In this document: in pieces, positions 6,592-29,407 of the stretch | Position numbering within the stretch: the stretch's first letter is position 1 | How the letters are laid out: each line of letters opens with the position of its first letter | IMG/VR virus record: IMGVR_UViG_3300045988_133265 | Origin: a virus | Strand: one strand, 5' to 3' | DNA: 41,363 nt | Program-made: the position numbers and the translations under genes | Notes under the pieces: generated by a model | Database searches by the model: none | What the model was told of the DNA's origin: nothing | The model's input: only the letters and a program-made list of their open reading frames with translations

Positions 6592-8060
6592 AGAATCCTC
6601 ACCCCTCGGTTACCGGCGCCCCGCGGGCGTCGCCTAGTCGTACGCGCCGTCCAGTTCGCGGCGCTGATCGCCTCGATCGGGAGCTCATCCCCCTCCGGCG
6701 AAGTCGCCTCCCAACCGAACGCCCCGTCCCTACGGCGCTTCTGTCTGTCGCACGAGCCCACTGACGCGTCCAAGGCATCGCCCTCCTGGCCCGCCGGGTG
6801 AGTCGTCTGGCCACTAGCCACCGACTGGACCAGCATAGCACACGAGTCCAGGTACTCGCCCGTGCTCATCACGTGGATCATGCGAGGCGGGAGCTTGCGC
6901 GCAAGCAGCGCGTCCTTCAACGGAGCCGAGCCCGCCCCACCCAACAGACTCACCTGCGCCGTAGACGACCGGCGCTCAGCCAGCCAATCCGCCAGCCGCT
7001 CCACGCCCTGCTCGAGCGGACCCGACCACGCACCGATCAGATTCACGTGAACCCGCTGGCCGTCACGCATCGCCCCAGCCACCGCCTGCCGCATGCCATC
7101 CTGACTGAACACCACAGCGAACGACTTGACCCCGTCCGCCGGGGGATCCGCCACACACGACTTCCACGCCTCCGCGCTGATCGCCCGAGTCCGGCCACGC
7201 TTCAACGGCCACACGCCCAGGCGCTCGCGGGCGAAACCATCCGGGCTGAACCGCTTGCGCTCACCCTCCACCACGATCATCTGCAAGCGACCAGCCGCAA
7301 GCGCCGGGTTGTTCGCCCGCCACAGCTCACGATCATCCAGATCCAACAGACCCGGGTTCCCATCCGGCGACCACTCATCCCAACAGGTCCGCCCTGGGTT
7401 GTCACCCAGGGCGTCGTCACGGACACGCGTGAAGACCTCGCCATCAGCCTGCGGGCCCGGCGGGGTCCCCGTGAACAGCCACTGCGGGTTACGTAGCGGA
7501 GCCGCCGACGTCGTCGGCATCAGAGCCTCCAACGCGTCGTCGTTCATCTCCTGTGCCTCGTCCATGACCAGCGTGTCGACCGTGAAGCCACGCGCCGAGT
7601 TCTTCGACCGGGCCACGATCTCAATCGACCCGCCGTTAGACAGCAGGACCGCCTCCTGGCCGTTCACCGACCGGATCGTCTTCACCAGGGCGTTCAGCTC
7701 CGGGAACTGCGCAGCCGGGTCGTTCGCCTTCTCGCCGAAGAAAAACTTCAAACGACGGAAGTGCTTCTGAGCCGTCTTCACCTCATGAGCCGTGTGGAGA
7801 ATCCGCTCCCCCAGGGCCACCGCCCCGAAGACCTCGCGGACCTCGAGGCACACGTTCTTCCCATTCTGGCGGGGGACCGACAGGCCACACGTCAGGTGGG
7901 CCCAGCGGCCGTGCTCGTCCAGCGCCAGCCACGCGTCCAAGACCTGAGCCTGCCACGGATCGGGCACCAGGCCGTGCTTGGTGATGAACTCGCACGCCAG
8001 GTCCCCCATGGTCCGGTCGATCGCAGTAGACCGGACGGTCTTAGGCGCGCTGGCGGGCAC
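6588..8060 (-). CDS. terL: Terminase large subunit
   Basis: 490 aa. The GTG start at 8060 is preceded by AGGAGG. VPRQNGKN is a Walker A-like motif and TLVMDEAQEM is Walker B, followed by a nuclease half. It lies upstream of the portal gene. Confidence 0.85.
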   Translation of the reverse strand: MPASAPKTVRSTAIDRTMGDLACEFITKHGLVPDPWQAQVLDAWLALDEHGRWAHLTCGLSVPRQNGKNVCLEVREVFGAVALGERILHTAHEVKTAQKHFRRLKFFFGEKANDPAAQFPELNALVKTIRSVNGQEAVLLSNGGSIEIVARSKNSARGFTVDTLVMDEAQEMNDDALEALMPTTSAAPLRNPQWLFTGTPPGPQADGEVFTRVRDDALGDNPGRTCWDEWSPDGNPGLLDLDDRELWRANNPALAAGRLQMIVVEGERKRFSPDGFARERLGVWPLKRGRTRAISAEAWKSCVADPPADGVKSFAVVFSQDGMRQAVAGAMRDGQRVHVNLIGAWSGPLEQGVERLADWLAERRSSTAQVSLLGGAGSAPLKDALLARKLPPRMIHVMSTGEYLDSCAMLVQSVASGQTTHPAGQEGDALDASVGSCDRQKRRRDGAFGWEATSPEGDELPIEAISAANWTARTTRRRPRGAGNRGVRIL

Positions 8061-8355
8061 GCACGGCCTCCTGGAAGTCGACCAGGCCGCTGGCCGGATC
8101 CTTGGACTCCGCGGCCTGCTTCACCTCGGTCTTCGAGGGCCGCTGGGCCGTGGGGATCCCCAGCGCCTGACTGATCGAGTTGGTCAGCTTGTGGGCCTCG
8201 CCGATCAGCGGACCACGCCGGTACTTGGGTGTCCCGGCCATGGACTGGAGCGACAGGTTGTACAGGCGTACGAGCTCGGCGATATGGTCCCAGTCACGGG
8301 CGTCCTCGGGCACCGGGGCCAGCAACTCGGAGTCGTCGTGAATCTCGGTAGCCAT
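8041..8355 (-). CDS. Terminase small subunit (position-based)
   Basis: 104-aa ORF overlapping the terL start by 20 nt. No motif was recognised, so the call rests on synteny only. Confidence 0.45.
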   Translation of the reverse strand: MATEIHDDSELLAPVPEDARDWDHIAELVRLYNLSLQSMAGTPKYRRGPLIGEAHKLTNSISQALGIPTAQRPSKTEVKQAAESKDPASGLVDFQEAVRARQRA

Positions 8356-10700: not shown

Positions 10701-10982
10701 ATGTGTGATGAACGTAACACAAACGAATCTGCCGACGTAGGACCCCGGTCCTATGCTCTGCGCATGACGAGGGCGGAGTGGCCCGAGGCCCGGTTGATCC
10801 GGGTCCTGATCGGGACCGCCGGTGGGCGCCTGGTGAAGGACCTGCTGGCGCTGCGCGGGCCCTCCACGCCCCGCGGCTTCCAATACCTGCTGGAGGACGG
10901 GCGGGTGCTCGACCCCCGCGAGGACGGCGACGTGATCGAGGCCTACCACATGGTAGAGCACGTGGGGAGGCGAGTCTGGTGA
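10701..10982 (+). CDS. Hypothetical protein
   Basis: 93-aa ORF preceded by the consensus leader AGGAGACACAAACC-ATG. Confidence 0.6.
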   Translation: MCDERNTNESADVGPRSYALRMTRAEWPEARLIRVLIGTAGGRLVKDLLALRGPSTPRGFQYLLEDGRVLDPREDGDVIEAYHMVEHVGRRVW

Positions 10983-13150
10983 CCACGAACACACGTGTGG
11001 AGCGCCTGAACCCCCGCGGGTTCATGCGTATGATCGCCGCCGCCGGGCTGGTTCGCCCCACGGTGGCTCTGGATACCGAGACGTCCGGGCTCCACCCGGA
11101 TGACGGGGCGCGGGTCTCAACCGTGTCCGTGGCTCTGGTCCTGGAGGGCCGGGAGCTCGAGTTCATCCGCCGCCACCTGCACGAGGGCCAGCACGTGTGG
11201 GACTCGGGCGTGGTCACGCTGCAGGAGGAGACCTACGCGGACGGCGTGGACCCGGTCTGGATCCTGTCGGCTGCGTGGCCGTTTGACCAGGGCGTGGAGG
11301 GCACGGGCAAGCCGGAGGACTCGGGGCAGGGCGAGCTGGTCCCGGCCACGTCGAACCAGCCGCACAGCCAGTGGCGCGGTCTATGCGAGGGCTTGACGGG
11401 CCCGCCGCCCGGGTCCAACGACGGTCCGCCGCAGGGCTGCGACCTGGTCTTCCACCACGCCCGATTCGACCTGGCTATGATGGCTGCGGGCGTGCGCAGG
11501 TGGCCGGGCGACGGCGTGGACCTGCTGGACCGGTTCCTGTGGGACACGCAGAACGTGTGCGCCCAGTTGTACGCCCCGTGGGTGCTGCGGCGTGGCCCGA
11601 AGGGCGCCATGGTGGGTACGACGGCGTTGAAGCCGACTTGTGAGTTCCTGTTCGGGACCGAGGTGGGCGATGAGTCGCGTACGGTCCACGACTACCTGAG
11701 GCGGGCGAAGCTGCCGGCTGGGCGCTGGGATCTGATGCCGTGGGACCGTGTGGGTAAGTACGCGGACTTGGACGCCCGGCTGACGCTCATGCTCTACCTG
11801 CGTCAGAACCACGACCTGGACGCGTATGGCCGGGGCGAGCTGTGGGATCTGCCGGCTCCGTCGGGTCACGTGTTGGATCACGCCTACCGGCGTATGGAGG
11901 TCACGCGTATGCTGGTGCGCACTGAGCGCCGGGGCCTGCCGTACGACCCGGAGGCGGCGCGCGCGGCTGGGGACCGGCTGAGGTCCGAGCTGGAGACCCT
12001 GGGTCGGTCGCTGCCGTTCGAGCCGAGCGTGAACGCGGCGAAGCGGTTCTGGTTCGCGCCGAAGTCCGAGGGCGGCATGGGTCTGCCGCCGTATGCGACC
12101 ACCGCACAGGGGGCGCCGTCTCTTACGGCGTCGATCCTGGACCGTATGGTGCGTGATCACATGCCGCATGCGGAACAGTTCGCGCGTTACCGGGGCTGGG
12201 ACTCGGCGGTCTCGCGCTGGTACGAGGGCTGGACTTCCATGGCGGGTCCGGACGGGCGGCTCCACCCGACTTTCCGGCAGAACGGGACGGTCTCGGGTCG
12301 GTTCTCGGTGGAACGGATCCAGTTGCAGGCGATTCCGCACGATTACCGGCTGGCTCTGCCGGAGGGCGTGCCGACGCCGCGTGGTCTGATCGAGCTGGGC
12401 GTGCCTCGTGGTTGGCGCCTGGTGGAGTGCGATCTGGCTAACGCGGAGGCTCGCGTGGCTGCGCTGCTTGCAAACTGCCGGCCCATGTTGCAGGCTTTTG
12501 CACAGGGGCGGGATCTGCACGGTGAAACGGCGAAGGCTTTGTTTCACGTGTCGGAGGACCGGCCGGATTGGTCGCAGTGGCGGACGCTTGCAAAGCGTGC
12601 AAACTTTTCTTTCATCTTCGGCGTGGGGGCGGACACGTTCCGTGAAAGCCTTGCAGCGGAGGGGACGGAGATCAGCCGTGCGGAGGCGCAGCGGATCGTG
12701 GCGGACTGGAACTCGCTGTACCCTCAGTACCGGCGTGCGATCCGGTTCCATGAGGAGCGGGTGAAGCAGCGGGTGGCCCGGTACGGTGTGGGCTGGGTCG
12801 ATCTGCGTAACGGCGAGCGCCGGTGGTTCACCAGGGACGAGGACACGCACAAGGCGTTCAACCAGCGGGTCCAGGGGAATCTGGCGCAGCTGGCTCAGGA
12901 CTGGTGGCTGGAGGCGACGGACAAGGTCGACCAGTTGCTGGCCCCGTGGGTGACCGACGGCGTGGACCGGGACGGCACGTACGTGGGTGGCGTGGGTGGT
13001 GTGCTCATGGTGCATGACTCGCTGGACGTGCTGGTCCCGATCGGTGAGATCGGGGACCGGTGCGTGGATGAGGTGGTGCGCGTGGGCGGCGAGGCGTGGG
13101 AGCGCTGGTTCCCGGAGGTCCCGGGCCACGTCGACCCGTCAGCGTGGTGA
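10979..13150 (+). CDS. Family-A DNA polymerase with 3'-5' exonuclease domain (DpoZ-like by context)
   Basis: The GTG at 10979 makes a GTGA overlap with the upstream stop. Motifs seen are ExoI VALDTETSGL, motif A VECDLANAEARV, motif B RTLAKRANFSFIFGVG and motif C LMVHDSLDV. Confidence 0.85.
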   Translation: MTTNTRVERLNPRGFMRMIAAAGLVRPTVALDTETSGLHPDDGARVSTVSVALVLEGRELEFIRRHLHEGQHVWDSGVVTLQEETYADGVDPVWILSAAWPFDQGVEGTGKPEDSGQGELVPATSNQPHSQWRGLCEGLTGPPPGSNDGPPQGCDLVFHHARFDLAMMAAGVRRWPGDGVDLLDRFLWDTQNVCAQLYAPWVLRRGPKGAMVGTTALKPTCEFLFGTEVGDESRTVHDYLRRAKLPAGRWDLMPWDRVGKYADLDARLTLMLYLRQNHDLDAYGRGELWDLPAPSGHVLDHAYRRMEVTRMLVRTERRGLPYDPEAARAAGDRLRSELETLGRSLPFEPSVNAAKRFWFAPKSEGGMGLPPYATTAQGAPSLTASILDRMVRDHMPHAEQFARYRGWDSAVSRWYEGWTSMAGPDGRLHPTFRQNGTVSGRFSVERIQLQAIPHDYRLALPEGVPTPRGLIELGVPRGWRLVECDLANAEARVAALLANCRPMLQAFAQGRDLHGETAKALFHVSEDRPDWSQWRTLAKRANFSFIFGVGADTFRESLAAEGTEISRAEAQRIVADWNSLYPQYRRAIRFHEERVKQRVARYGVGWVDLRNGERRWFTRDEDTHKAFNQRVQGNLAQLAQDWWLEATDKVDQLLAPWVTDGVDRDGTYVGGVGGVLMVHDSLDVLVPIGEIGDRCVDEVVRVGGEAWERWFPEVPGHVDPSAW

Positions 13151-13194: not shown

Positions 13195-13743
13195 ATGGAA
13201 CAGGGAGACAAGACCGAGACGCGGACCGGCTACAGCGCCGAGACGCTGAGGCGCCTCGCCAGCTGGTTCGACCCGACCGGCTACCTGATGGTCAATTCCG
13301 CGCGGCGGCTGGCCACGGACAGGTCGTTCGCCACGATCCTACTGACGAAGACCAACGACCGGGAGGACTCGCTTGAGGTCCACCACCTGGCGCCCGACCG
13401 GTCCTGGCCCGTCGGAGTCGGCGGGACCAGCAGCCAGCCGCGCCGGTTCTACCAGGTGCCCGTGGTGATCTCGAAAGCACGAGACCTGCTGCTGGACATG
13501 CAGCCGTACGTGCACGTACAGAAACGGTCGCTCGAGATCATGATCCGTGCGCTGGCGGACTACGAGATCATCAAGGACCCGCAGTTCCTGCCGGAGGACC
13601 CGATCGTGAAGCGGGCCAAGCGGCGGATCCAACGGGCGCGTAGAGACCTGCGCGCCGCCAACCAACAAGCCTCCCGCCGCAAGCGGGAACTCCGCCAGCA
13701 GTTGGCGGAGATTAAGAAACACGAACAGGAGACACAGCCATGA
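13195..13743 (+). CDS. Hypothetical protein with very basic coiled-coil C-terminus, translationally coupled to the purZ-like gene
   Basis: 182-aa ORF. The C-terminus is KRAKRRIQRARRDLRAANQQASRRKRELRQQLAEIKKHEQ. There is an ATGA overlap with the next gene at 13740..13743. Confidence 0.65.
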   Translation: MEQGDKTETRTGYSAETLRRLASWFDPTGYLMVNSARRLATDRSFATILLTKTNDREDSLEVHHLAPDRSWPVGVGGTSSQPRRFYQVPVVISKARDLLLDMQPYVHVQKRSLEIMIRALADYEIIKDPQFLPEDPIVKRAKRRIQRARRDLRAANQQASRRKRELRQQLAEIKKHEQETQP

Positions 13744-14840
13744 GCAAAGTCGTCGTAGTCGCAGGCGCCCAGTTCGGGTCCGAGGGCAAGGGCCACGTGG
13801 CCGCCCAGTTGATCCAGCTGGAGCAGCGCGCCGCCCACCCGGTGCTGAACGTGCGAGTCGCCGGGCCTAACGCGGGCCACACGGTGGTCGACAGGGACGG
13901 GCGGGCGTTCGCCCTGCGTACCGTGCCGGTGGGCGCCGCCCTGGACCCGTGCCGGTGCGCGATCGCCCCGGGGTCGGAGATCGAGCTGGCGGTCCTGCGC
14001 CAGGAGGTCCAGGACCTGCGCGCCGCGGGCCACCGCGTGGACATGGTGATCGCCGCGGAGGCGACGGTCCTGACGGATGAGCACAAGCAGGCGGAGGTCG
14101 AGGCGGGCATGGCGCAGCGCCTCGGGTCCACGGCTAAGGGGATCGGGGCCTGCAGGTCGGACCGCGTGTGGCGCACGGCCACCCGGTTCGGGGACTCGCC
14201 CGAGGCGGTGGCCCTCGCGGAGGAGCTCGGCTTCGAGGTGATCGAGAACTGGGTCGCCTACATGAACGACTACCTGGACCACGTGCCTCAGGCGATCGTC
14301 GTGGAGGGCACGCAGGGCTACGGGCTGGGGCTCCACGCGGGCCACTACCCGCAGTGCACGAGTAGCGACACGCGTGGGATCGACTTCCTGGCTATGGCGG
14401 GCGTGAACCCGTGGCACGCGGGCGTGAGCGAGTTCAAGATCGTGCTGGCTACCCGCGTCTACCCGATCCGCGTGGCTGGGAACTCGGGCCCGCTCGAGGG
14501 CGAGACCACGTGGGAGGAGCTGGGCCTGCCTCAGGAGCGCACGACGGTGACTCACAAGGTCCGCCGCGTGGGCCAGTTCGACCCGGCGGCGATCAACCGG
14601 GCGATCCACGCGAACGGCGGGGAGCCGACGGTTGAGATCGCGATGACCATGGTGGACCAGGTCCTGCCGCAGATCAAGGACGCGGACGGGGACTCGGCGG
14701 ACTGGGCGTCGGCCCAGTTGGAGTCCCAGGAGGGGACGGCCGCGGCCACGGCGCTGTTCGAGTACCTGACCACGGTGCGGGCGGCGCTGGACGCGCCGAT
14801 CACCATGGTGACGACCTCGCCGTCGACGGCGCTGTACTGA
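13740..14840 (+). CDS. purZ: Adenylosuccinate synthetase homologue, PurZ-like (candidate N6-succino-2-amino-2'-deoxyadenylate synthase)
   Basis: The ORF aligns by eye along the whole length of E. coli PurA. Matches are VVVAGAQFGSEGKGHVAA (PurA VVVLGTQWGDEGKGKIVD), RVAGPNAGHTVV (RYQGGHNAGHTLV), GSTAKGIG (GTTGRGIG), VVEGTQGYGL..HYPQCTSS (MFEGAQGTLL..TYPYVTSS), IAMTMVD (FCLTKLD) and ITMVTTSPS (IDIISTGPD). At 366 aa it is shorter than the roughly 430 aa of PurA. Confidence 0.7.
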   Translation: MSKVVVVAGAQFGSEGKGHVAAQLIQLEQRAAHPVLNVRVAGPNAGHTVVDRDGRAFALRTVPVGAALDPCRCAIAPGSEIELAVLRQEVQDLRAAGHRVDMVIAAEATVLTDEHKQAEVEAGMAQRLGSTAKGIGACRSDRVWRTATRFGDSPEAVALAEELGFEVIENWVAYMNDYLDHVPQAIVVEGTQGYGLGLHAGHYPQCTSSDTRGIDFLAMAGVNPWHAGVSEFKIVLATRVYPIRVAGNSGPLEGETTWEELGLPQERTTVTHKVRRVGQFDPAAINRAIHANGGEPTVEIAMTMVDQVLPQIKDADGDSADWASAQLESQEGTAAATALFEYLTTVRAALDAPITMVTTSPSTALY

Positions 14841-14850
14841 GGAGGCGGAC

Positions 14851-15432
14851 ATGCTCAGGGGTGCGCTGGACGGCGTCCGCAATCGACTGGCGGACTGGAT
14901 CCGGGTCCCGGGGGACGACCCCGTGGAGCCGCCGGTCTGGGAGTTCCTGGTGGAGGAGGACCCGGGTCCGGTCTCGACCCAGTCGGGTCGGTTCATGGGG
15001 CAGGAGCGGGTGGCTCCCTGTTGCGAGCCGTGGCTGACGGACCTGGTGGGGTCGGCTCCGACGGCGGCCAGCCCGGACGACCCCGGGACCTCGGTGGAGG
15101 CGCTGGCGGATCTGCGTGACTGGTGGCTGTCGACCGCCCAGGCGGACATGGCCATGGTGGCGCCGAAGGCCGTGGAGTACGGCTCGGTGGAACTGGAGGA
15201 GATGGGCGCGGCGCTGGCCCGTATGATGGGCCGGTCGGACCTGTCGGCCGCCCGCCGGGTGGAGCTGGCGTGCTGGTTCTACGCGATGGGGAAGATGCAG
15301 CGGTGGACGGCGGCGGTCACGCGTGGTGAGTTCGTCTCGGACGACACGCTTACGGACCTGGGGGTTTACACGCTCATGGTCCGCCGCGCCCGTGAGGCCG
15401 GGACCTGGCCGGGTGGCCCGGACCGGGACTGA
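14851..15432 (+). CDS. MazG-like nucleotide pyrophosphohydrolase candidate (MazZ/DUF550-like by context)
   Basis: 193-aa ORF with a GGAGG RBS. The C-terminal roughly 100 aa (KAVEYGSVELEEMG...ELACWFYAMGKMQRW...DDTLTDLGVYTLMV) resembles the all-alpha MazG-like pattern, from memory only. The N-terminal roughly 90 aa is unassigned. Confidence 0.45.
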   Translation: MLRGALDGVRNRLADWIRVPGDDPVEPPVWEFLVEEDPGPVSTQSGRFMGQERVAPCCEPWLTDLVGSAPTAASPDDPGTSVEALADLRDWWLSTAQADMAMVAPKAVEYGSVELEEMGAALARMMGRSDLSAARRVELACWFYAMGKMQRWTAAVTRGEFVSDDTLTDLGVYTLMVRRAREAGTWPGGPDRD

Positions 15433-15478: not shown

Positions 15479-15500
15479 TCGAAACTTTGGAGACAGAACG

Positions 15501-16385
15501 ATGACTTTGGTATACGTGGCTCAGGCGGTCGACAGGGACGCGCCGCAGATCCCCGCGAGGTTCGAGGAGGTGCTGGACTGGTTGCGGCACGATTTCGTGC
15601 TGTATCGGCCCGCGAGCGCCTTCCAGGTTTCGCCGGGTGGCGTGGGCACGGACTCGTGCGTGCGTGACGTGAACATGGCGGCGCTGGATCGTGCGGACGC
15701 GCTGCTGGTTCTGCTGCCGGTGGAGGAGCCCCGGTCTTGGGGCGTCCCGGCGGAGGTTGAGCGGGCGATCATAGCGGCAAAGCCGGTGACTTTCCTGGTG
15801 ACTCGGGGGAGCCGTGTGGTGGGTGGCTGGTCGACCCAGTACGCGTCCACTGAGGTGGAGGTGATTGCGACCGAGTCCGTGCCGCTGTTGCGGGTGGTGG
15901 AGTTGGTGCGTGCGTCGTTGACTCGCAGGACTGCGCTGGTGCCTCACCGCCCTGTGGCGGATCTGCCGGTCCGTATGGATTCGGGGGCGGCGAGGCTCCC
16001 GACTCGGGGTCACGACGATGACGCGGGTCTGGACCTGTACGTGTCGGCTCTGACGACTTGCCCGCCGGGGCAGTTCGTGGACGTGCCGTGTGGCGTGGCT
16101 GTGGAGCTGCCGGCTGGCACGTGGGGGCTTCTGACTGGTCGGTCGTCGACGATGAGGCGGCGTGGTCTGCAGACGATTCAGGGGGTGATCGATTGTGGTT
16201 ATCGTGGCGAGCTTTTTGCTGGCGTGTTCAATCCGGGCACGGAGGAGGTCGTGCTTGAGGAGGGCGAGCGCGTCAGTCAGTTGATCGTGCTACCGAATCT
16301 GACGGCTGGCTTGCGCCCGGTTCTGGCGCGGGAGCTGTCGGACTCGGATCGGGGTACTGGGGGCTTCGGCTCCACCGGTCTGTGA
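15501..16385 (+). CDS. Fusion protein: N-terminal nucleoside 2-deoxyribosyltransferase/dNMP N-hydrolase-like domain plus C-terminal trimeric dUTPase
   Basis: The C-terminal half has all five dUTPase motifs: AGLDL, GRSS, GVIDCGYRGE, RVSQL and RGTGGFGSTG. The N-terminal roughly 145 aa (VYVAQAVD...DVNMAALDRADALLVLLP...SWGVPAEVERAIIAAKPVTFLV) fits the NDT/Rcl-like Rossmann pattern. Confidence 0.75.
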   Translation: MTLVYVAQAVDRDAPQIPARFEEVLDWLRHDFVLYRPASAFQVSPGGVGTDSCVRDVNMAALDRADALLVLLPVEEPRSWGVPAEVERAIIAAKPVTFLVTRGSRVVGGWSTQYASTEVEVIATESVPLLRVVELVRASLTRRTALVPHRPVADLPVRMDSGAARLPTRGHDDDAGLDLYVSALTTCPPGQFVDVPCGVAVELPAGTWGLLTGRSSTMRRRGLQTIQGVIDCGYRGELFAGVFNPGTEEVVLEEGERVSQLIVLPNLTAGLRPVLARELSDSDRGTGGFGSTGL

Positions 16386-25074: not shown

Positions 25075-27759
25075 ATGAGACTGAGTGATTTCACGCAGGC
25101 ACTGAGCGACGACGCCCCCGCCGCCCCCGCGGCCGACATGCTGCAGGCGGCCCTGGACTGGGCCGCCGCCGGTTGGTACGTGTTCCCGCTGCGCCCCGGG
25201 AGCAAGGCCCCGCTGCTGCCCCGGAGCCGTGACTGCGACAAGAGCTGCCACGGCACGTGTGGTAAAGACGGCCACGGCGCCTGGGACGGGACCGTCGACC
25301 CCGAGCGGATCCGCCGCTGGTGGGGAAACAACCCGAACGCCGGGATCGGCGGCGCCACCGTCGGCCGAGTCGTGATCGACCTGGACGTCCAGCACGGCGC
25401 CCCCACCGACCTGCCGTACCCGCCCACGCGCGAGCACCTGAGCGGCCGCGGTAACGGGAACAAGCACCTGATCTACCGGGCGATCGACGGCGGACTCAGC
25501 GAGCGGATCCGATCGGGCACGAACGTGCTCGGACCCGGCGTCGACATACGCGCCGGGGGAGGGTCGTACGTGGTGCTACCCCCGACGCCACATGAGGCTA
25601 CTGGACTACCCTACCGGGTCGCCGACGCGGACGTGCCCGAGGCCGAGTTGACCGACGACGGCGTCGTCGCGCTATGGACCGCCGCCGGGGCGCCCGTCCC
25701 CGGGACGGACCCGCGCACGCGCCCCCGCGGGCGAGGCGGTCTGCGCCTGGCCGTCGACAACAGCCAGCAGGTCGCCGACGCCGCTCCCCGGCGGCTGCAC
25801 GAGCTGCTCGGCTCCATGCCGGCTGAGGGCGGCCGTAACGATTGGCTCACCCGCCTATGTGGCCACCTGGCCCGCGTCCACCGGCACGACGAGCCCGGCT
25901 ACTTCGCGCTGGTCCGGTCAATCGCCGCGAACCTGCCGGATCCGCTGCCCGCCCGCGAGGTCGAACGGACCGCCGAGTCTGTGTGGAACACGGACCAGAC
26001 GAACCACGCACCCGCCGAGGGGGTCAGTGCCGACACGGGCTGGCTCGCCGGGGACGGCGTCCACCTCACGTGCCAGGTCCGCGTGAACGCGCCGACCGGG
26101 AACGTGCTCGAACAGGCCGACTACGGGAACTTCGACCTGCGTGCCCTGGGGGTCTCCACGGACGACGCGGGCGTGCGGTCCATGCACGTGGAAGTCCTGC
26201 GCGACGGCCGGTCCGTCACCACCGTGATCCCAGCCACCCAGTTCGGGGATGACCGGGCCACACGCAAGTGGCTGACCGGGTTCGGGGCCAGCGCCGTCGC
26301 CCCGCCCAACGCGTACCCGCCCATGGCTCTGGGGGAGCGGCTGCTGCGCTACCTGGACGCACAGGCCCCGCGGGAGACCCGCGTCGTGGAGCACCTGGGT
26401 TGGGACGAACAGCTGGGTGGTTTCATCACCCCGGACTTCGTCCTGACGGGGGCGACCGTGGAAGACCTGCGTGACTCGGGCGTCTCGCTGGCGCCTTCGC
26501 TGGGAGCGCGCAACCTGTTCACCCACCGGTACGGCCGCCACAAGGACTTGGAGGAGGCCCGGCGGGTCCTGCGCGAGGTCCTGACCTTCCAGGAGCCGGA
26601 GACGGCCTCCGTGTTCGGTGCCTGGTGGGCGGCTTGCTTCCTGCGCCCCCAGATCCAGTCGGAGGCCAGCCTGTTCCCGTTCATGGGGCTGGAGGCCACG
26701 GCCGAGTCCGGTAAGACCACGGGGTTCTTCGATCTCATGGTCCAACTGAACGGGAACGTGCGCGGACAGACCGCCCCCACGCGGGCGGTCCTGCGTGACT
26801 CCATGAGCGCCAACTCGAGCGGGATCGTGTGGGTCGACGACATGGACGACCTGGACGCCTACGGGGAGCTGCTGCGGGCCTCCACGACCTCGGGCGTCGT
26901 GGCGAAGATGGGCGCGGACAACACGAGCGTGACGGCGGTGAAAGTAGTCGCCCCGGTCCTGATCTCGGGCGAGTCGCTGGGGCTGCGGTCGCAGAAAGCG
27001 CTCGCGGACCGCTCCTACGTGCTGGACGTGAAGAGTCCGAAGGGGCGCAGATCGCTGCACGGCGACTACCCGCAGTGGGACGACGTCGTGGACCTCATGG
27101 GCAAGTACCCGCGGGCGCAGGGCGGTCTGGCGGTCCTGTCCGGCCACCTGCTGCAGGTGGCTCTGACTCACCGGGGCGTGATCGTGGACTGTTTGCGAGA
27201 GATGCGTCGGGACCTGCGCGGCCGGTTCGGAGACCGCATGGCAGTGATCCGAGCTGGGGCGCGCCTGCTGGACGAACTGGTGGGGGCGGACCCGACCCCG
27301 TGGGAGGGGACGGGCGAGCACGCCCAGCGCGTGGACGCGTGGGTGAAGGCGCAGCTGGCGGGCCACCTGGACCGGGACAACTCGCTGACGCTGAAACTCG
27401 TGCCGTGGGCGCTACGGGCTTGGGGCTTCCCGACCGCTCCTGGGGCCTCGGAGGCCACGGGACGGTTCTCTGGTGTCGACACCCCGGTGTTTGTCCAGGA
27501 GTTCGGTCCTGAGGCTCTGGACGGCTCGGGCGGTACCTGCGTGTGGGTGTCTACGTCGCTGCTGGCCGACGCATGGCGCCGGGAGGTCGGCCGCGGGGTC
27601 TCGGAGCGAACGGAGACCTCCTCGGCACTGGAACAGCAGGCGCAGGCGTTGGGGGCGTCGGACCAGTTCCACGTGATCCAAGGGTCGACCAGGCGCATGC
27701 GTTACTTCTGCCTGCCGGCTCGTTACTCGCAGGCGGTCCTGGACCGGGCGCGCGGCTGA
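25075..27759 (+). CDS. Bifunctional primase-polymerase / SF3-type helicase
   Basis: 894 aa. The N-terminal Prim-Pol motifs are GWYVFPLRPGSKAP, VVIDLDV (DxD) and GGGSYVVLPPTPH. The central P-loop is GLEATAESGKTT. Confidence 0.8.
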   Translation: MRLSDFTQALSDDAPAAPAADMLQAALDWAAAGWYVFPLRPGSKAPLLPRSRDCDKSCHGTCGKDGHGAWDGTVDPERIRRWWGNNPNAGIGGATVGRVVIDLDVQHGAPTDLPYPPTREHLSGRGNGNKHLIYRAIDGGLSERIRSGTNVLGPGVDIRAGGGSYVVLPPTPHEATGLPYRVADADVPEAELTDDGVVALWTAAGAPVPGTDPRTRPRGRGGLRLAVDNSQQVADAAPRRLHELLGSMPAEGGRNDWLTRLCGHLARVHRHDEPGYFALVRSIAANLPDPLPAREVERTAESVWNTDQTNHAPAEGVSADTGWLAGDGVHLTCQVRVNAPTGNVLEQADYGNFDLRALGVSTDDAGVRSMHVEVLRDGRSVTTVIPATQFGDDRATRKWLTGFGASAVAPPNAYPPMALGERLLRYLDAQAPRETRVVEHLGWDEQLGGFITPDFVLTGATVEDLRDSGVSLAPSLGARNLFTHRYGRHKDLEEARRVLREVLTFQEPETASVFGAWWAACFLRPQIQSEASLFPFMGLEATAESGKTTGFFDLMVQLNGNVRGQTAPTRAVLRDSMSANSSGIVWVDDMDDLDAYGELLRASTTSGVVAKMGADNTSVTAVKVVAPVLISGESLGLRSQKALADRSYVLDVKSPKGRRSLHGDYPQWDDVVDLMGKYPRAQGGLAVLSGHLLQVALTHRGVIVDCLREMRRDLRGRFGDRMAVIRAGARLLDELVGADPTPWEGTGEHAQRVDAWVKAQLAGHLDRDNSLTLKLVPWALRAWGFPTAPGASEATGRFSGVDTPVFVQEFGPEALDGSGGTCVWVSTSLLADAWRREVGRGVSERTETSSALEQQAQALGASDQFHVIQGSTRRMRYFCLPARYSQAVLDRARG

Positions 27760-28128: not shown

Positions 28129-28556
28129 CCGTCTACAGACTCGATTTTACCGACTCCCCCGGGCGTTACCGGGTGGTTAACGCGGACCTGGACTACAAGC
28201 CCGCCGTCCTGCCCGAGGACACGATTCTTCCCAGCGGGGAGCCCCACCCGTACGCGGGCCGCGCGATCTCCGCCGGGACCAACGGGGAGACCAAGACCTG
28301 GATCATGCTGGGCGGGTTCACCGCCGCCGTCATAGAGCGCGCTCCCCAGTCCGCCCAGAACCCCCGGTCCGGCGACTACATGGAGGAGACCGTCCTGCGC
28401 CCCTGGTTCGCCGTCCCCACCGCCGCGGACCCGTCCGTCTCTACGTCGTGGCACCCCCACCAGTTGCCGCGGTGGCAGGACCGCCACGCGGCCGCGATCG
28501 CCCACGCCTCGAACACGTGGGACCTGCTCTACCGAGCCGCGAAGGCGCTGGGCTGA
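28125..28556 (+). CDS. Hypothetical protein
   Basis: The ATG at 28125 makes an ATGA overlap and follows AGGAGACACG. This is the C-terminal 143 aa of track ORF 27543..28556. Confidence 0.55.
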   Translation: MTVYRLDFTDSPGRYRVVNADLDYKPAVLPEDTILPSGEPHPYAGRAISAGTNGETKTWIMLGGFTAAVIERAPQSAQNPRSGDYMEETVLRPWFAVPTAADPSVSTSWHPHQLPRWQDRHAAAIAHASNTWDLLYRAAKALG

Positions 28557-29407
28557 TGAACTGGCTAGCAACCGGCGGACACGCGGTCCTGTCCCTGTGT
28601 AGCGGCTATGGCGGCCTCGAGCTCGCCCTGCAACGCGTCCTGCCGACCTCCTACGTGGGCGCCTACTGCGACAACTACGGCCCCGCCCAACAGGTCCTGC
28701 AGGCCTACAACCCGCGGGTGGACGTGTTCAAAGACGTGCGAGACCCGGAGCTGCTGAACCTCAAGGCCCCGATCGTCACGTTCGGCTTCCCGTGCCAGGA
28801 CCTGTCCGTCGCCGGTAACCGAGCCGGGCTGGACGGAGAGCGCAGCGGCCTGTTCTATACGTGTATGGCCATAGTCCGCGCCGCGTACCCCGATCTGGTG
28901 GTCGTGGAGAACGTCCCGAGACTCCTGCGCTACCAGGACGTCGTCGACGCCCAGTTCCACGACGCCGGTTTCGAGACCGCCTGGGTGACCAGGCGCGCGT
29001 GCGACGCCGGGCTCCCACACAAGCGCGAGCGAGTCTTCATCGTCGCCAAGCGCCCCGGCGTCCACTTCCTGGGCTACTGCAAACCCGTTCACCCCGAGCC
29101 CGTGGAGCCCGTCTGGCCCACGCCCACCGTGGTCGACATGGGCTGGGGACGAACCGCCCAGGAGTGGCGCGACTGGACTGAGGCCATGCGAGAGCGACAC
29201 GGCAACGGAAACGGCCACGGGCGGAGCCTGTACCAGCTCTGTGGCGAGGGCACGCTCCTGGTCATGGAGCACCTCATGGGACTCTCGACCGGTTACATAA
29301 CCGGGCTTGGGCTGAGCACCGCCGCGCAGCGACGGCTGCTGGGCAACGGCGTCGCCCCCGCGCAGGGCGCGCTCGCGATCTGGGAGGGACTGAACGCACT
29401 GGGCTAA
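28556..29407 (+). CDS. DNA (cytosine-5) methyltransferase
   Basis: Motifs seen are motif I LSLCSGYGGLELA, motif IV FGFPCQDLSVAG, motif VI VVVENVPRLL and motif X RRLLGNGV. Confidence 0.85.
   Translation: MNWLATGGHAVLSLCSGYGGLELALQRVLPTSYVGAYCDNYGPAQQVLQAYNPRVDVFKDVRDPELLNLKAPIVTFGFPCQDLSVAGNRAGLDGERSGLFYTCMAIVRAAYPDLVVVENVPRLLRYQDVVDAQFHDAGFETAWVTRRACDAGLPHKRERVFIVAKRPGVHFLGYCKPVHPEPVEPVWPTPTVVDMGWGRTAQEWRDWTEAMRERHGNGNGHGRSLYQLCGEGTLLVMEHLMGLSTGYITGLGLSTAAQRRLLGNGVAPAQGALAIWEGLNALG

Follow-up and report, generated by a model that had tools for sequence, protein, structure and literature searches.

A predicted DmtZ-DutZ fusion enzyme encoded by a PurZ0-bearing phage from human oral metagenomes

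We analyzed a stretch of viral DNA of 41,363 nucleotides (nt), IMG/VR record IMGVR_UViG_3300045988_133265 (hereafter, the window), and focused on the gene at 15501..16385, whose product fuses an N-terminal domain related to nucleoside 2-deoxyribosyltransferases (NDT) with a C-terminal domain related to dUTPases (Dut). Judged from its sequence, this fusion is probably (with a probability of about 0.82) a functional orthologue of DmtZ-DutZ, the enzyme of PurZ0-type Z-genome phages, and we infer its substrates and both of its activities from the biochemistry of the corresponding proteins of phages Wayne and Ghobes. An earlier note on this DNA, prepared from the letters alone, had proposed that a dNTP pyrophosphatase joined to a dNMP N-glycosidase-like domain could degrade an unwanted deoxynucleotide from dNTP via dNMP to the free base and deoxyribose phosphate, and might thereby stand in for the dATPase DatZ. 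Insofar as homology to the Wayne enzyme (PMC12884076) can support it, that mechanism is right, but it had already been published (February 2026).

The window protein shares 35% identity with the DmtZ-DutZ protein of Arthrobacter phage Wayne (gp53, ALY10777.1) over residues 4-293 (E=1e-50), the identity being only about 30% across the N-domains and about 50% across the Dut domains. The two proteins are alike in domain order (NDT-like, flexible linker, Dut), in size (306 amino acids [aa] in Wayne versus 294 aa in the window), and in all catalytic and specificity residues; moreover, both fusions end a DpoZ-1/PurZ0 cluster in an actinobacteriophage-like genome without DatZ or MazZ. They differ in the connection between the two domains, which in the window is shorter by about 20 residues following the Trp lid, in the non-consensus residues A9, T101, and G109 of the window protein, in the gene between PurZ0 and the fusion (an unrelated uncharacterized protein in the window rather than DUF5664-1), and in habitat (human oral metagenomes for the window protein versus soil Arthrobacter for Wayne).

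Poubanne et al. (Nucleic Acids Research, February 2026; PMC12884076) purified the 307-aa "NDT-Dut-like" protein of Wayne, each of its halves, and, from Gordonia phage Ghobes, the two proteins that are encoded separately there. In their experiments, the DutZ domain converted dATP, dGTP, and dUTP to the respective dNMPs (with a kcat for dATP ~10x that for dGTP), and the DmtZ domain, which is dAMP-specific in Wayne, released adenine from dAMP and also moved deoxyribose-5-phosphate from dAMP onto 2,6-diaminopurine (the Z base), thereby yielding dZMP (PMC12884076). Activity of Ghobes DmtZ was lost upon mutation of Tyr6, Glu103, or Asp12 and lowered by N77D and P57A (the mutants reported being Y6A, D12A/R, P57A, N77D, and E103A), with Asp12 assigned to reading the adenine 6-amino group, Pro57 to a transferase-type water shield, and Trp124 to a lid (PMC12884076). 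The accompanying survey located dutZ in 98/98 PurZ0 genomes and dmtZ in 85, with 77 of these 85 dmtZ genes fused to dutZ, and described PurZ0 phages as relying on DutZ/DmtZ/DUF5664-1 and PurZ phages on DatZ plus either MazZ or DUF550 (PMC12884076). Independently, a 2025 preprint noted that Wayne-like dZ phages devoid of DatZ and MazZ carry an "NDT or dUTPase/NDT dual protein" (10.1101/2025.10.22.683976).

AlphaFold2 (AF2) modeling of the full-length window protein gave two confident domains, with a predicted local distance difference test score (pLDDT) of 90.1, joined by a poorly defined segment (mean pLDDT 59 at residues 141-150, <50 at 147-149). The predicted template modeling score (pTM) was 0.64, which, set against a pLDDT of 90, implies that the relative placement of the two domains is not fixed; an inter-domain linker is also described for the Wayne enzyme (PMC12884076). 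The two-domain open reading frame (ORF) recognized in the earlier note is real, consisting of an NDT/DNPH1-fold N-terminus and a trimeric-type dUTPase C-terminus. A scan for promoters and terminators around the fusion gene returned nothing exceeding shuffle expectation.

Since Foldseek searches with the full-length model returned dUTPases only, we modeled the N-domain separately (residues 1-144; pLDDT 88.8, pTM 0.86). In the PDB, the top 50 Foldseek matches to this model were all DNPH1/Rcl, MilB, or NDT structures (E from 1.5e-5, template modeling [TM] score 0.5-0.75), such that the fold is that of the DNPH1/Rcl and NDT superfamily (E~1e-5, TM-score 0.6-0.7). In BFVD, the second-ranked match was Ghobes DmtZ itself (A0A1B3B077, 161 aa; E=1.2e-6, TM-score 0.72 query-normalized and 0.66 target-normalized), placed between an unnamed 291-aa protein at rank 1 and the Archimedes homologue of Ghobes DmtZ at rank 3. 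Consistently, a profile built from an N-domain family alignment of 40 sequences, Wayne and Ghobes DmtZ included, identified rat Rcl/DNPH1 (E=2.5e-4) and an NDT (E=5.5e-4) as its first matches among PDB sequences. The Pfam model PF05014 (Nuc_deoxyrib_tr; cut-off 28.8 bits) was matched individually by 27 of the 40 family members (best E=2.2e-8) and remained sub-threshold for the window N-domain (E=0.099 within the full protein, 0.027 alone). Targeted pairwise comparisons linked the N-domain to those of Wayne (43 bits, E=1e-10) and to Ghobes DmtZ (28 bits, E=3e-5). The family profile, the PF05014 matches of its members, and the Foldseek results on the AF2 model all agree with the NDT/Rcl-like identity that had been read from the letters.

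Within the 40-sequence alignment, residues Y5, D11, P37, N58, G81, and E85 of the window protein are invariant and occupy the same columns as Y6, D12, P57, N77, G99, and E103 of Ghobes DmtZ, and W110 aligns with the Ghobes lid residue W124. The catalytic triad Tyr6/Asn77/Glu103 (Ghobes numbering) is hence present as Y5/N58/E85, and every DmtZ residue validated by mutagenesis is kept (i.e., Tyr5, Asp11, Pro37, Asn58, and Glu85). Across 110 fused homologues, the six invariant residues are kept in 108-110 sequences (D11 in 109/110, P37 in 110/110) and W110 in 103/110. Ghobes DmtZ additionally carries a ~20-residue insertion after the first strand, which the window protein lacks. Relative to DNPH1/Rcl, with which it shares 15-20% identity, the N-domain retains the Tyr...Glu nucleophile arrangement, the G-x-x-x-E motif (SWGVPAE in the window versus SLGVGYE), and the phosphate-binding Ser (Ser79, aligned with Rcl Ser87 in the profile-PDB alignment); in contrast, it has Asn in place of the catalytic Asp and a transferase-type Pro. 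We take Rcl Ser87 to be a 5'-phosphate ligand in Rcl, and the presence of Ser79 at the aligned position would fit a nucleotide rather than a nucleoside substrate. By homology to DmtZ, the window domain would be expected to be adenine-specific and capable of deoxyribose-5-phosphate transfer, unlike DNPH1, which performs no transfer. The signature string cited in the earlier note, NMAALDRADALLVLLPVEEPRSWGVPAEVERAIIAAKPV, was indeed located at residues 58-96, but the spacing given for it was one residue short (D56-x8-A65, not x7), and the catalytic residue in this segment is no Asp but Asn58, the equivalent of Rcl Asp69. Asp66 of the "ADALL" segment was also considered as the catalytic Asp and ruled out, because the Rcl alignment and the published triad put the catalytic position at N58.

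Residues 164-293 match Pfam dUTPase PF00692 (E=5.5e-24) and PHROG 135 dUTPase (E=1e-42), and five of five dUTPase motifs (I-V) could be read in alignments to solved dUTPases, in line with the complete trimeric dUTPase described earlier. Foldseek likewise matched dUTPases at E~1e-15, with target-normalized TM-scores of 0.7-0.9. The fold and the five motifs are those of canonical homotrimeric dUTPases (M. tuberculosis, human, and E. coli Dut), at 33-36% identity; by comparison, the window Dut is fused to DmtZ and, by identity ranking, belongs to the PurZ0-phage clade (DutZ), whose characterized members hydrolyze dATP and dGTP too. More specifically, Ghobes DutZ, the Wayne Dut domain, and Parvaparticeps Dut each share 50-55% identity with the window domain. 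Its matches in the phage database fell into two tiers, the upper one (45-60% identity, E 1e-23 to 1e-42) comprising Duts of PurZ0-bearing actinophages of Microbacterium, Arthrobacter, Gordonia, and Streptomyces and the lower one (34-42% identity) comprising phages outside PurZ-carrying groups. By this identity ranking, the window Dut domain falls together with the DutZ proteins found in PurZ0 phages. It scores below the NCBIfam dut cut-offs (100.5 versus 102.55; 87.4 versus 103). A candidate signature of purine acceptance, such as the ELFAGVFN hairpin with Gly241, proved uninterpretable, as canonical Duts also have small residues there and the base is recognized by backbone atoms.

A full-length protein search returned 192 proteins matching the fusion at E<=1e-10, most of them 280-330 aa long with 99-100% of the query covered. 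This size and coverage indicate that the fused architecture is common to them, and >100 metagenomic homologues are of this kind. Gene calls on 13 independent contigs, which come from several samples and include ten of the 20-50 kb class, gave exactly this 294-aa protein; one of these homologous contigs is L008 (ENA ERZ988860, run ERR589461, PRJEB6997). Split arrangements do exist, as in Ghobes, where DmtZ (gp53, AOE44404.1) and DutZ (gp55, AOE44406.1) are separate and whose two activities would be expected alike in the window, and in Parvaparticeps, Rasovi, and Olihed, which have a stand-alone Dut. Nevertheless, recurrence of the identical protein, the >100 homologues of equal length and architecture, and the published proportion of fused dmtZ genes make it exceedingly improbable that the gene is an assembly or frameshift artifact joining two separate genes.

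No competing adenine-clearing enzyme was recognized in the window. A Pfam scan of its 145 ORFs of >=90 aa in six frames detected none of HD, HD_3, YfbR-like, MazG, DUF550, or DUF5664 at E<=0.01, and the same scan identified 15 families in each half of the window. Likewise, searches of all six frames with DatZ of phage phiVC8 (phmmer --max and tblastn) yielded noise only (best E 0.34-2). Together, these searches bear out the earlier statement that the genome has no HD-type dATPase, and the lack of a DatZ/MazZ-type enzyme is what is expected for a PurZ0 phage. In PurZ-type phages, DatZ and MazZ/DUF550 have the same physiological job, i.e., removing dATP and providing dGMP for PurZ, but their folds are unrelated to those of the fusion and the chemistry is different (DatZ: dATP to dA plus triphosphate).

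Several observations weigh against assigning the fusion to DmtZ-DutZ. The identity of its N-domain to the two characterized DmtZ proteins is 25-30%, and the N-domain alone had no tblastn match among 50,697 phage records. Residues 1-160 had no match in a database of 5.8 billion proteins, a negative that is partly due to the word index of that search: when queried with residues 1-160, it also missed the 95%-identical full-length protein P0001 in the same database, so that its negatives for short divergent domains are not readable as absence. The N-domain has A9 where 100/110 homologues have Pro, T101 where 95/110 have Asp/Glu, and G109 where 95/110 have Ser/Thr, together with a 4-residue insertion (105-108) directly before the Trp lid; each of these features is common to at most about 2-11 of the 110 homologues. 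At the position of G109, Rcl has Ser117, presumably, from the Rcl literature, a phosphate ligand contributed by the neighboring subunit. Such changes could alter affinity or specificity. As for the Dut domain, its five motifs all look canonical, and purine acceptance is unreadable from its sequence because dUTPases recognize the base largely by backbone atoms. Finally, dUTP is the best substrate of the Wayne enzyme by kcat, and transfer to the Z base reached only about 20% in vitro (PMC12884076).

These points can be turned into two alternative readings. The first holds that both domains are active but that the specificity or activity balance of the N-domain has shifted in this lineage, such that it might also act on dZMP, dGMP, or dUMP or might be a pure hydrolase without Z-base transfer. 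The rare A9, T101, G109, and 105-108 insertion do lie near the phosphate/lid region, with G109 opposite the presumed phosphate ligand of Rcl, and specificity has diverged before, since Ghobes DmtZ, unlike Wayne DmtZ, also hydrolyzes dZMP (PMC12884076). We regard this reading as unlikely, given that Asp11 (the proposed 6-amino selector) and all mutagenesis-tested residues are unchanged, that the deviating positions are absent from the published model, and that none of them is implicated by published mutagenesis.

The second reading, which we judge quite improbable, is that of an ordinary dUTPase excluding uracil, with an N-domain that is catalytically silent or only regulatory or structural. 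The canonical motifs, the fact that the best solved-structure matches are true dUTPases, the N-domain falling under the Pfam threshold when taken alone, and the preference of the Wayne enzyme for dUTP would all suit it. However, the nucleophile Glu, its Tyr/Asn partners, the adenine-reading Asp, the phosphate Ser, and the Trp lid are kept in essentially all 110 homologues, as is not expected of a dead domain; in Wayne, the orthologous N-domain has activity and acts specifically on dAMP (PMC12884076); and the fusion gene is always PurZ-linked in a genome that has no other dATP-clearing enzyme. The cautious fallback of the earlier note, a genuine dUTPase with an accessory domain, holds in part, to the extent that the highest kcat of the Wayne enzyme is on dUTP.

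If the fusion is a DmtZ-DutZ orthologue, the following mechanism may be proposed by analogy with Wayne and Ghobes. DutZ would hydrolyze dATP to dAMP and pyrophosphate, would also act on dUTP, and would convert dGTP to dGMP for use by PurZ. DmtZ, flexibly tethered, would then attack dAMP with Glu85 as nucleophile, positioned by Tyr5 and Asn58; Asp11 would read the adenine 6-amino group, Ser79 and backbone atoms would hold the 5'-phosphate, and adenine would be released. The enzyme-bound deoxyribose-5-phosphate could be passed to water, in which case dAMP would be destroyed irreversibly, or alternatively to the 2,6-diaminopurine base, giving dZMP. This transferase activity (dAMP plus Z base to dZMP plus adenine) had not been foreseen in the earlier note. 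Fusion, PurZ0, and DpoZ-1 would together replace the HD-type DatZ and MazZ in excluding adenine from DNA. The features discussed here and their coordinates are collected in Table 1.

Table 1. Features of the PurZ0 cluster and of the fusion gene in the window
Feature	Position	Strand	Remarks
Family-A DNA polymerase, DpoZ-1 (Wayne-like) type	10979..13150	+	PF00476; start taken from the 723-aa gene call on L008
182-aa ORF	13195..13743	+	between polymerase and PurZ; no Pfam, PHROG, or NCBIfam match
PurZ, PurZ0 subgroup	13740..14840	+	commits the phage to 2-aminoadenine synthesis; NF038379 above cut-off
Conserved ORF between PurZ0 and fusion, 193 aa	14851..15432	+	no family match
Shine-Dalgarno-like GGAGA	15489..15493	+	7 nt 5' of the fusion-gene ATG; read from the sequence
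dmtZ-dutZ fusion gene (predicted)	15501..16385	+	294 aa plus stop codon; ATG start; single uninterrupted ORF
DmtZ domain, residues 1-141	15501..15923	+	NDT/DNPH1 fold; predicted dAMP N-glycosidase and deoxyribose-5-phosphate transferase
Inter-domain linker, about residues 142-156	15924..15968	+	low pLDDT in the full-length AF2 model
DutZ domain, residues 157-294	15969..16382	+	trimeric-type dUTPase fold; predicted dATP/dGTP/dUTP diphosphohydrolase

The fusion gene closes a cluster in which a family-A DNA polymerase, the 182-aa ORF, PurZ, and the 193-aa ORF precede it. The polymerase is 43% identical over 729 aa to DNA polymerase I (gp47) of Wayne, versus 26% over a partial stretch only to DpoZ of phiVC8; Wayne-type DNA polymerase I is classed as DpoZ-1 (PMC12884076). 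PurZ scored 334 bits against NCBIfam NF038379 (cut-off 300), has Ser at the PurA Asp13 position within its GAQFGSEGKG motif, and is 46-51% identical to the PurZ0 proteins of Wayne, Ghobes, and Parvaparticeps versus 34% identical to PurZ of phiVC8. The slot of the 182-aa ORF is taken by an HNH endonuclease in Wayne and by short hypothetical genes in other PurZ0 phages. In 4/4 distant fused homologues on metagenomic contigs (39-50% identity), the order PurZ, small ORF, fusion after PolA was the same.

The product of the ORF at 14851..15432, which had been labeled "MazG-like", had no counterpart among the families of Pfam, PHROG, and NCBIfam. Two profiles, one drawn from 11 of its relatives and the other from 51, had no match in the PDB, hhalign comparison with Wayne DUF5664 gave a probability of <1%, and Pfam scans of ten multi-domain relatives revealed no informative partner domains; that label therefore finds no support at the sequence level. 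The C-terminal ~105 aa (residues ~88-187, about 15112..15411) nonetheless form a conserved domain, 40-48% identical to the product of the gene directly after PurZ0 in named actinophages, namely Ghobes (gp51), Hiyaa (gp68), Parvaparticeps, Goodman-like Microbacterium phages, and Micrococcus phage Olihed. Its invariant residues are W91, W92, K106, Y110, G119, E138, K148, R151, D165, D169, Y173, M176, G184, W186, and P187 (numbering of the 193-aa ORF). The domain lies between PurZ and the fusion in 4/4 metagenomic clusters checked (E 1e-40 to 1e-50) and separates PurZ0 from DmtZ-DutZ in all of the non-Arthrobacter clusters that were inspected, and an exhaustive profile search collected 936 clusters at 50% identity. 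Close relatives of the ORF (91-96% identity) were found on many 40-43-kb contigs. The ORF holds the genomic slot of Wayne DUF5664-1, and the main text of the paper on the Wayne and Ghobes enzymes does not discuss it (PMC12884076). We tentatively entertain the possibility, doubtful as it stands, that the fusion is the only recognizable dATP-clearing enzyme and that the 193-aa protein is a fourth PurZ0-pathway component not yet described, acting perhaps as a new nucleotide-pool enzyme in lieu of DUF5664-1 or else as the fusion's partner or regulator. This conserved uncharacterized neighbor is a more promising open lead than the fusion itself.

Three further genes deserve mention. On L014, an 89-kb contig (JGI 3300046782), a PurZ cluster includes a fused DmtZ-DutZ gene, and ~1 kb downstream of that gene lies a Lyase_1 gene (PF00206) at 6806..8164. 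PF00206 is the family that includes the adenylosuccinate lyase PurB, and the finding suggests that some relatives encode their own PurB-like step rather than using that of the host. In the window itself, 28448..29407 (+) encodes a C-5 cytosine DNA methyltransferase (PF00145, E=1.9e-30), such that this presumed Z-genome phage may also methylate cytosine, and 25075..27759 (+) encodes an 894-aa PrimPol/PriCT_1 primase-polymerase.

A human oral metagenome yielded contig L008 (41.4 kb), on which the exact fusion protein is flanked by the same genes as in the window; the data suggest that a PurZ0-type phage, presumably with Z-DNA, is common in the human mouth. Among the 50,697 deposited phage genomes, none is closely related to the window, and the best match at the nucleotide level reached 76% identity over 278 bp of purZ. 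Its G+C content is 62-71% in 2-kb windows (mostly 67-70%), and from this high value we infer a high-GC oral actinobacterium as the probable host.

The window adds a divergent DmtZ-DutZ member from a new habitat to an already published system. At the strength of the assignment given above, adenine exclusion by DmtZ-DutZ would reach sequences only about 35% identical to the characterized enzyme and would now be placed in phages of the human oral microbiome, and the mutationally defined residues hold across >100 metagenomic homologues. DmtZ is of practical interest as the first deoxyribose-5-phosphate transferase from nature, opening a route to dZMP and to modified nucleotides, and the divergent and compact fusion of the window could therefore serve as a useful extra specimen for structure and engineering work.

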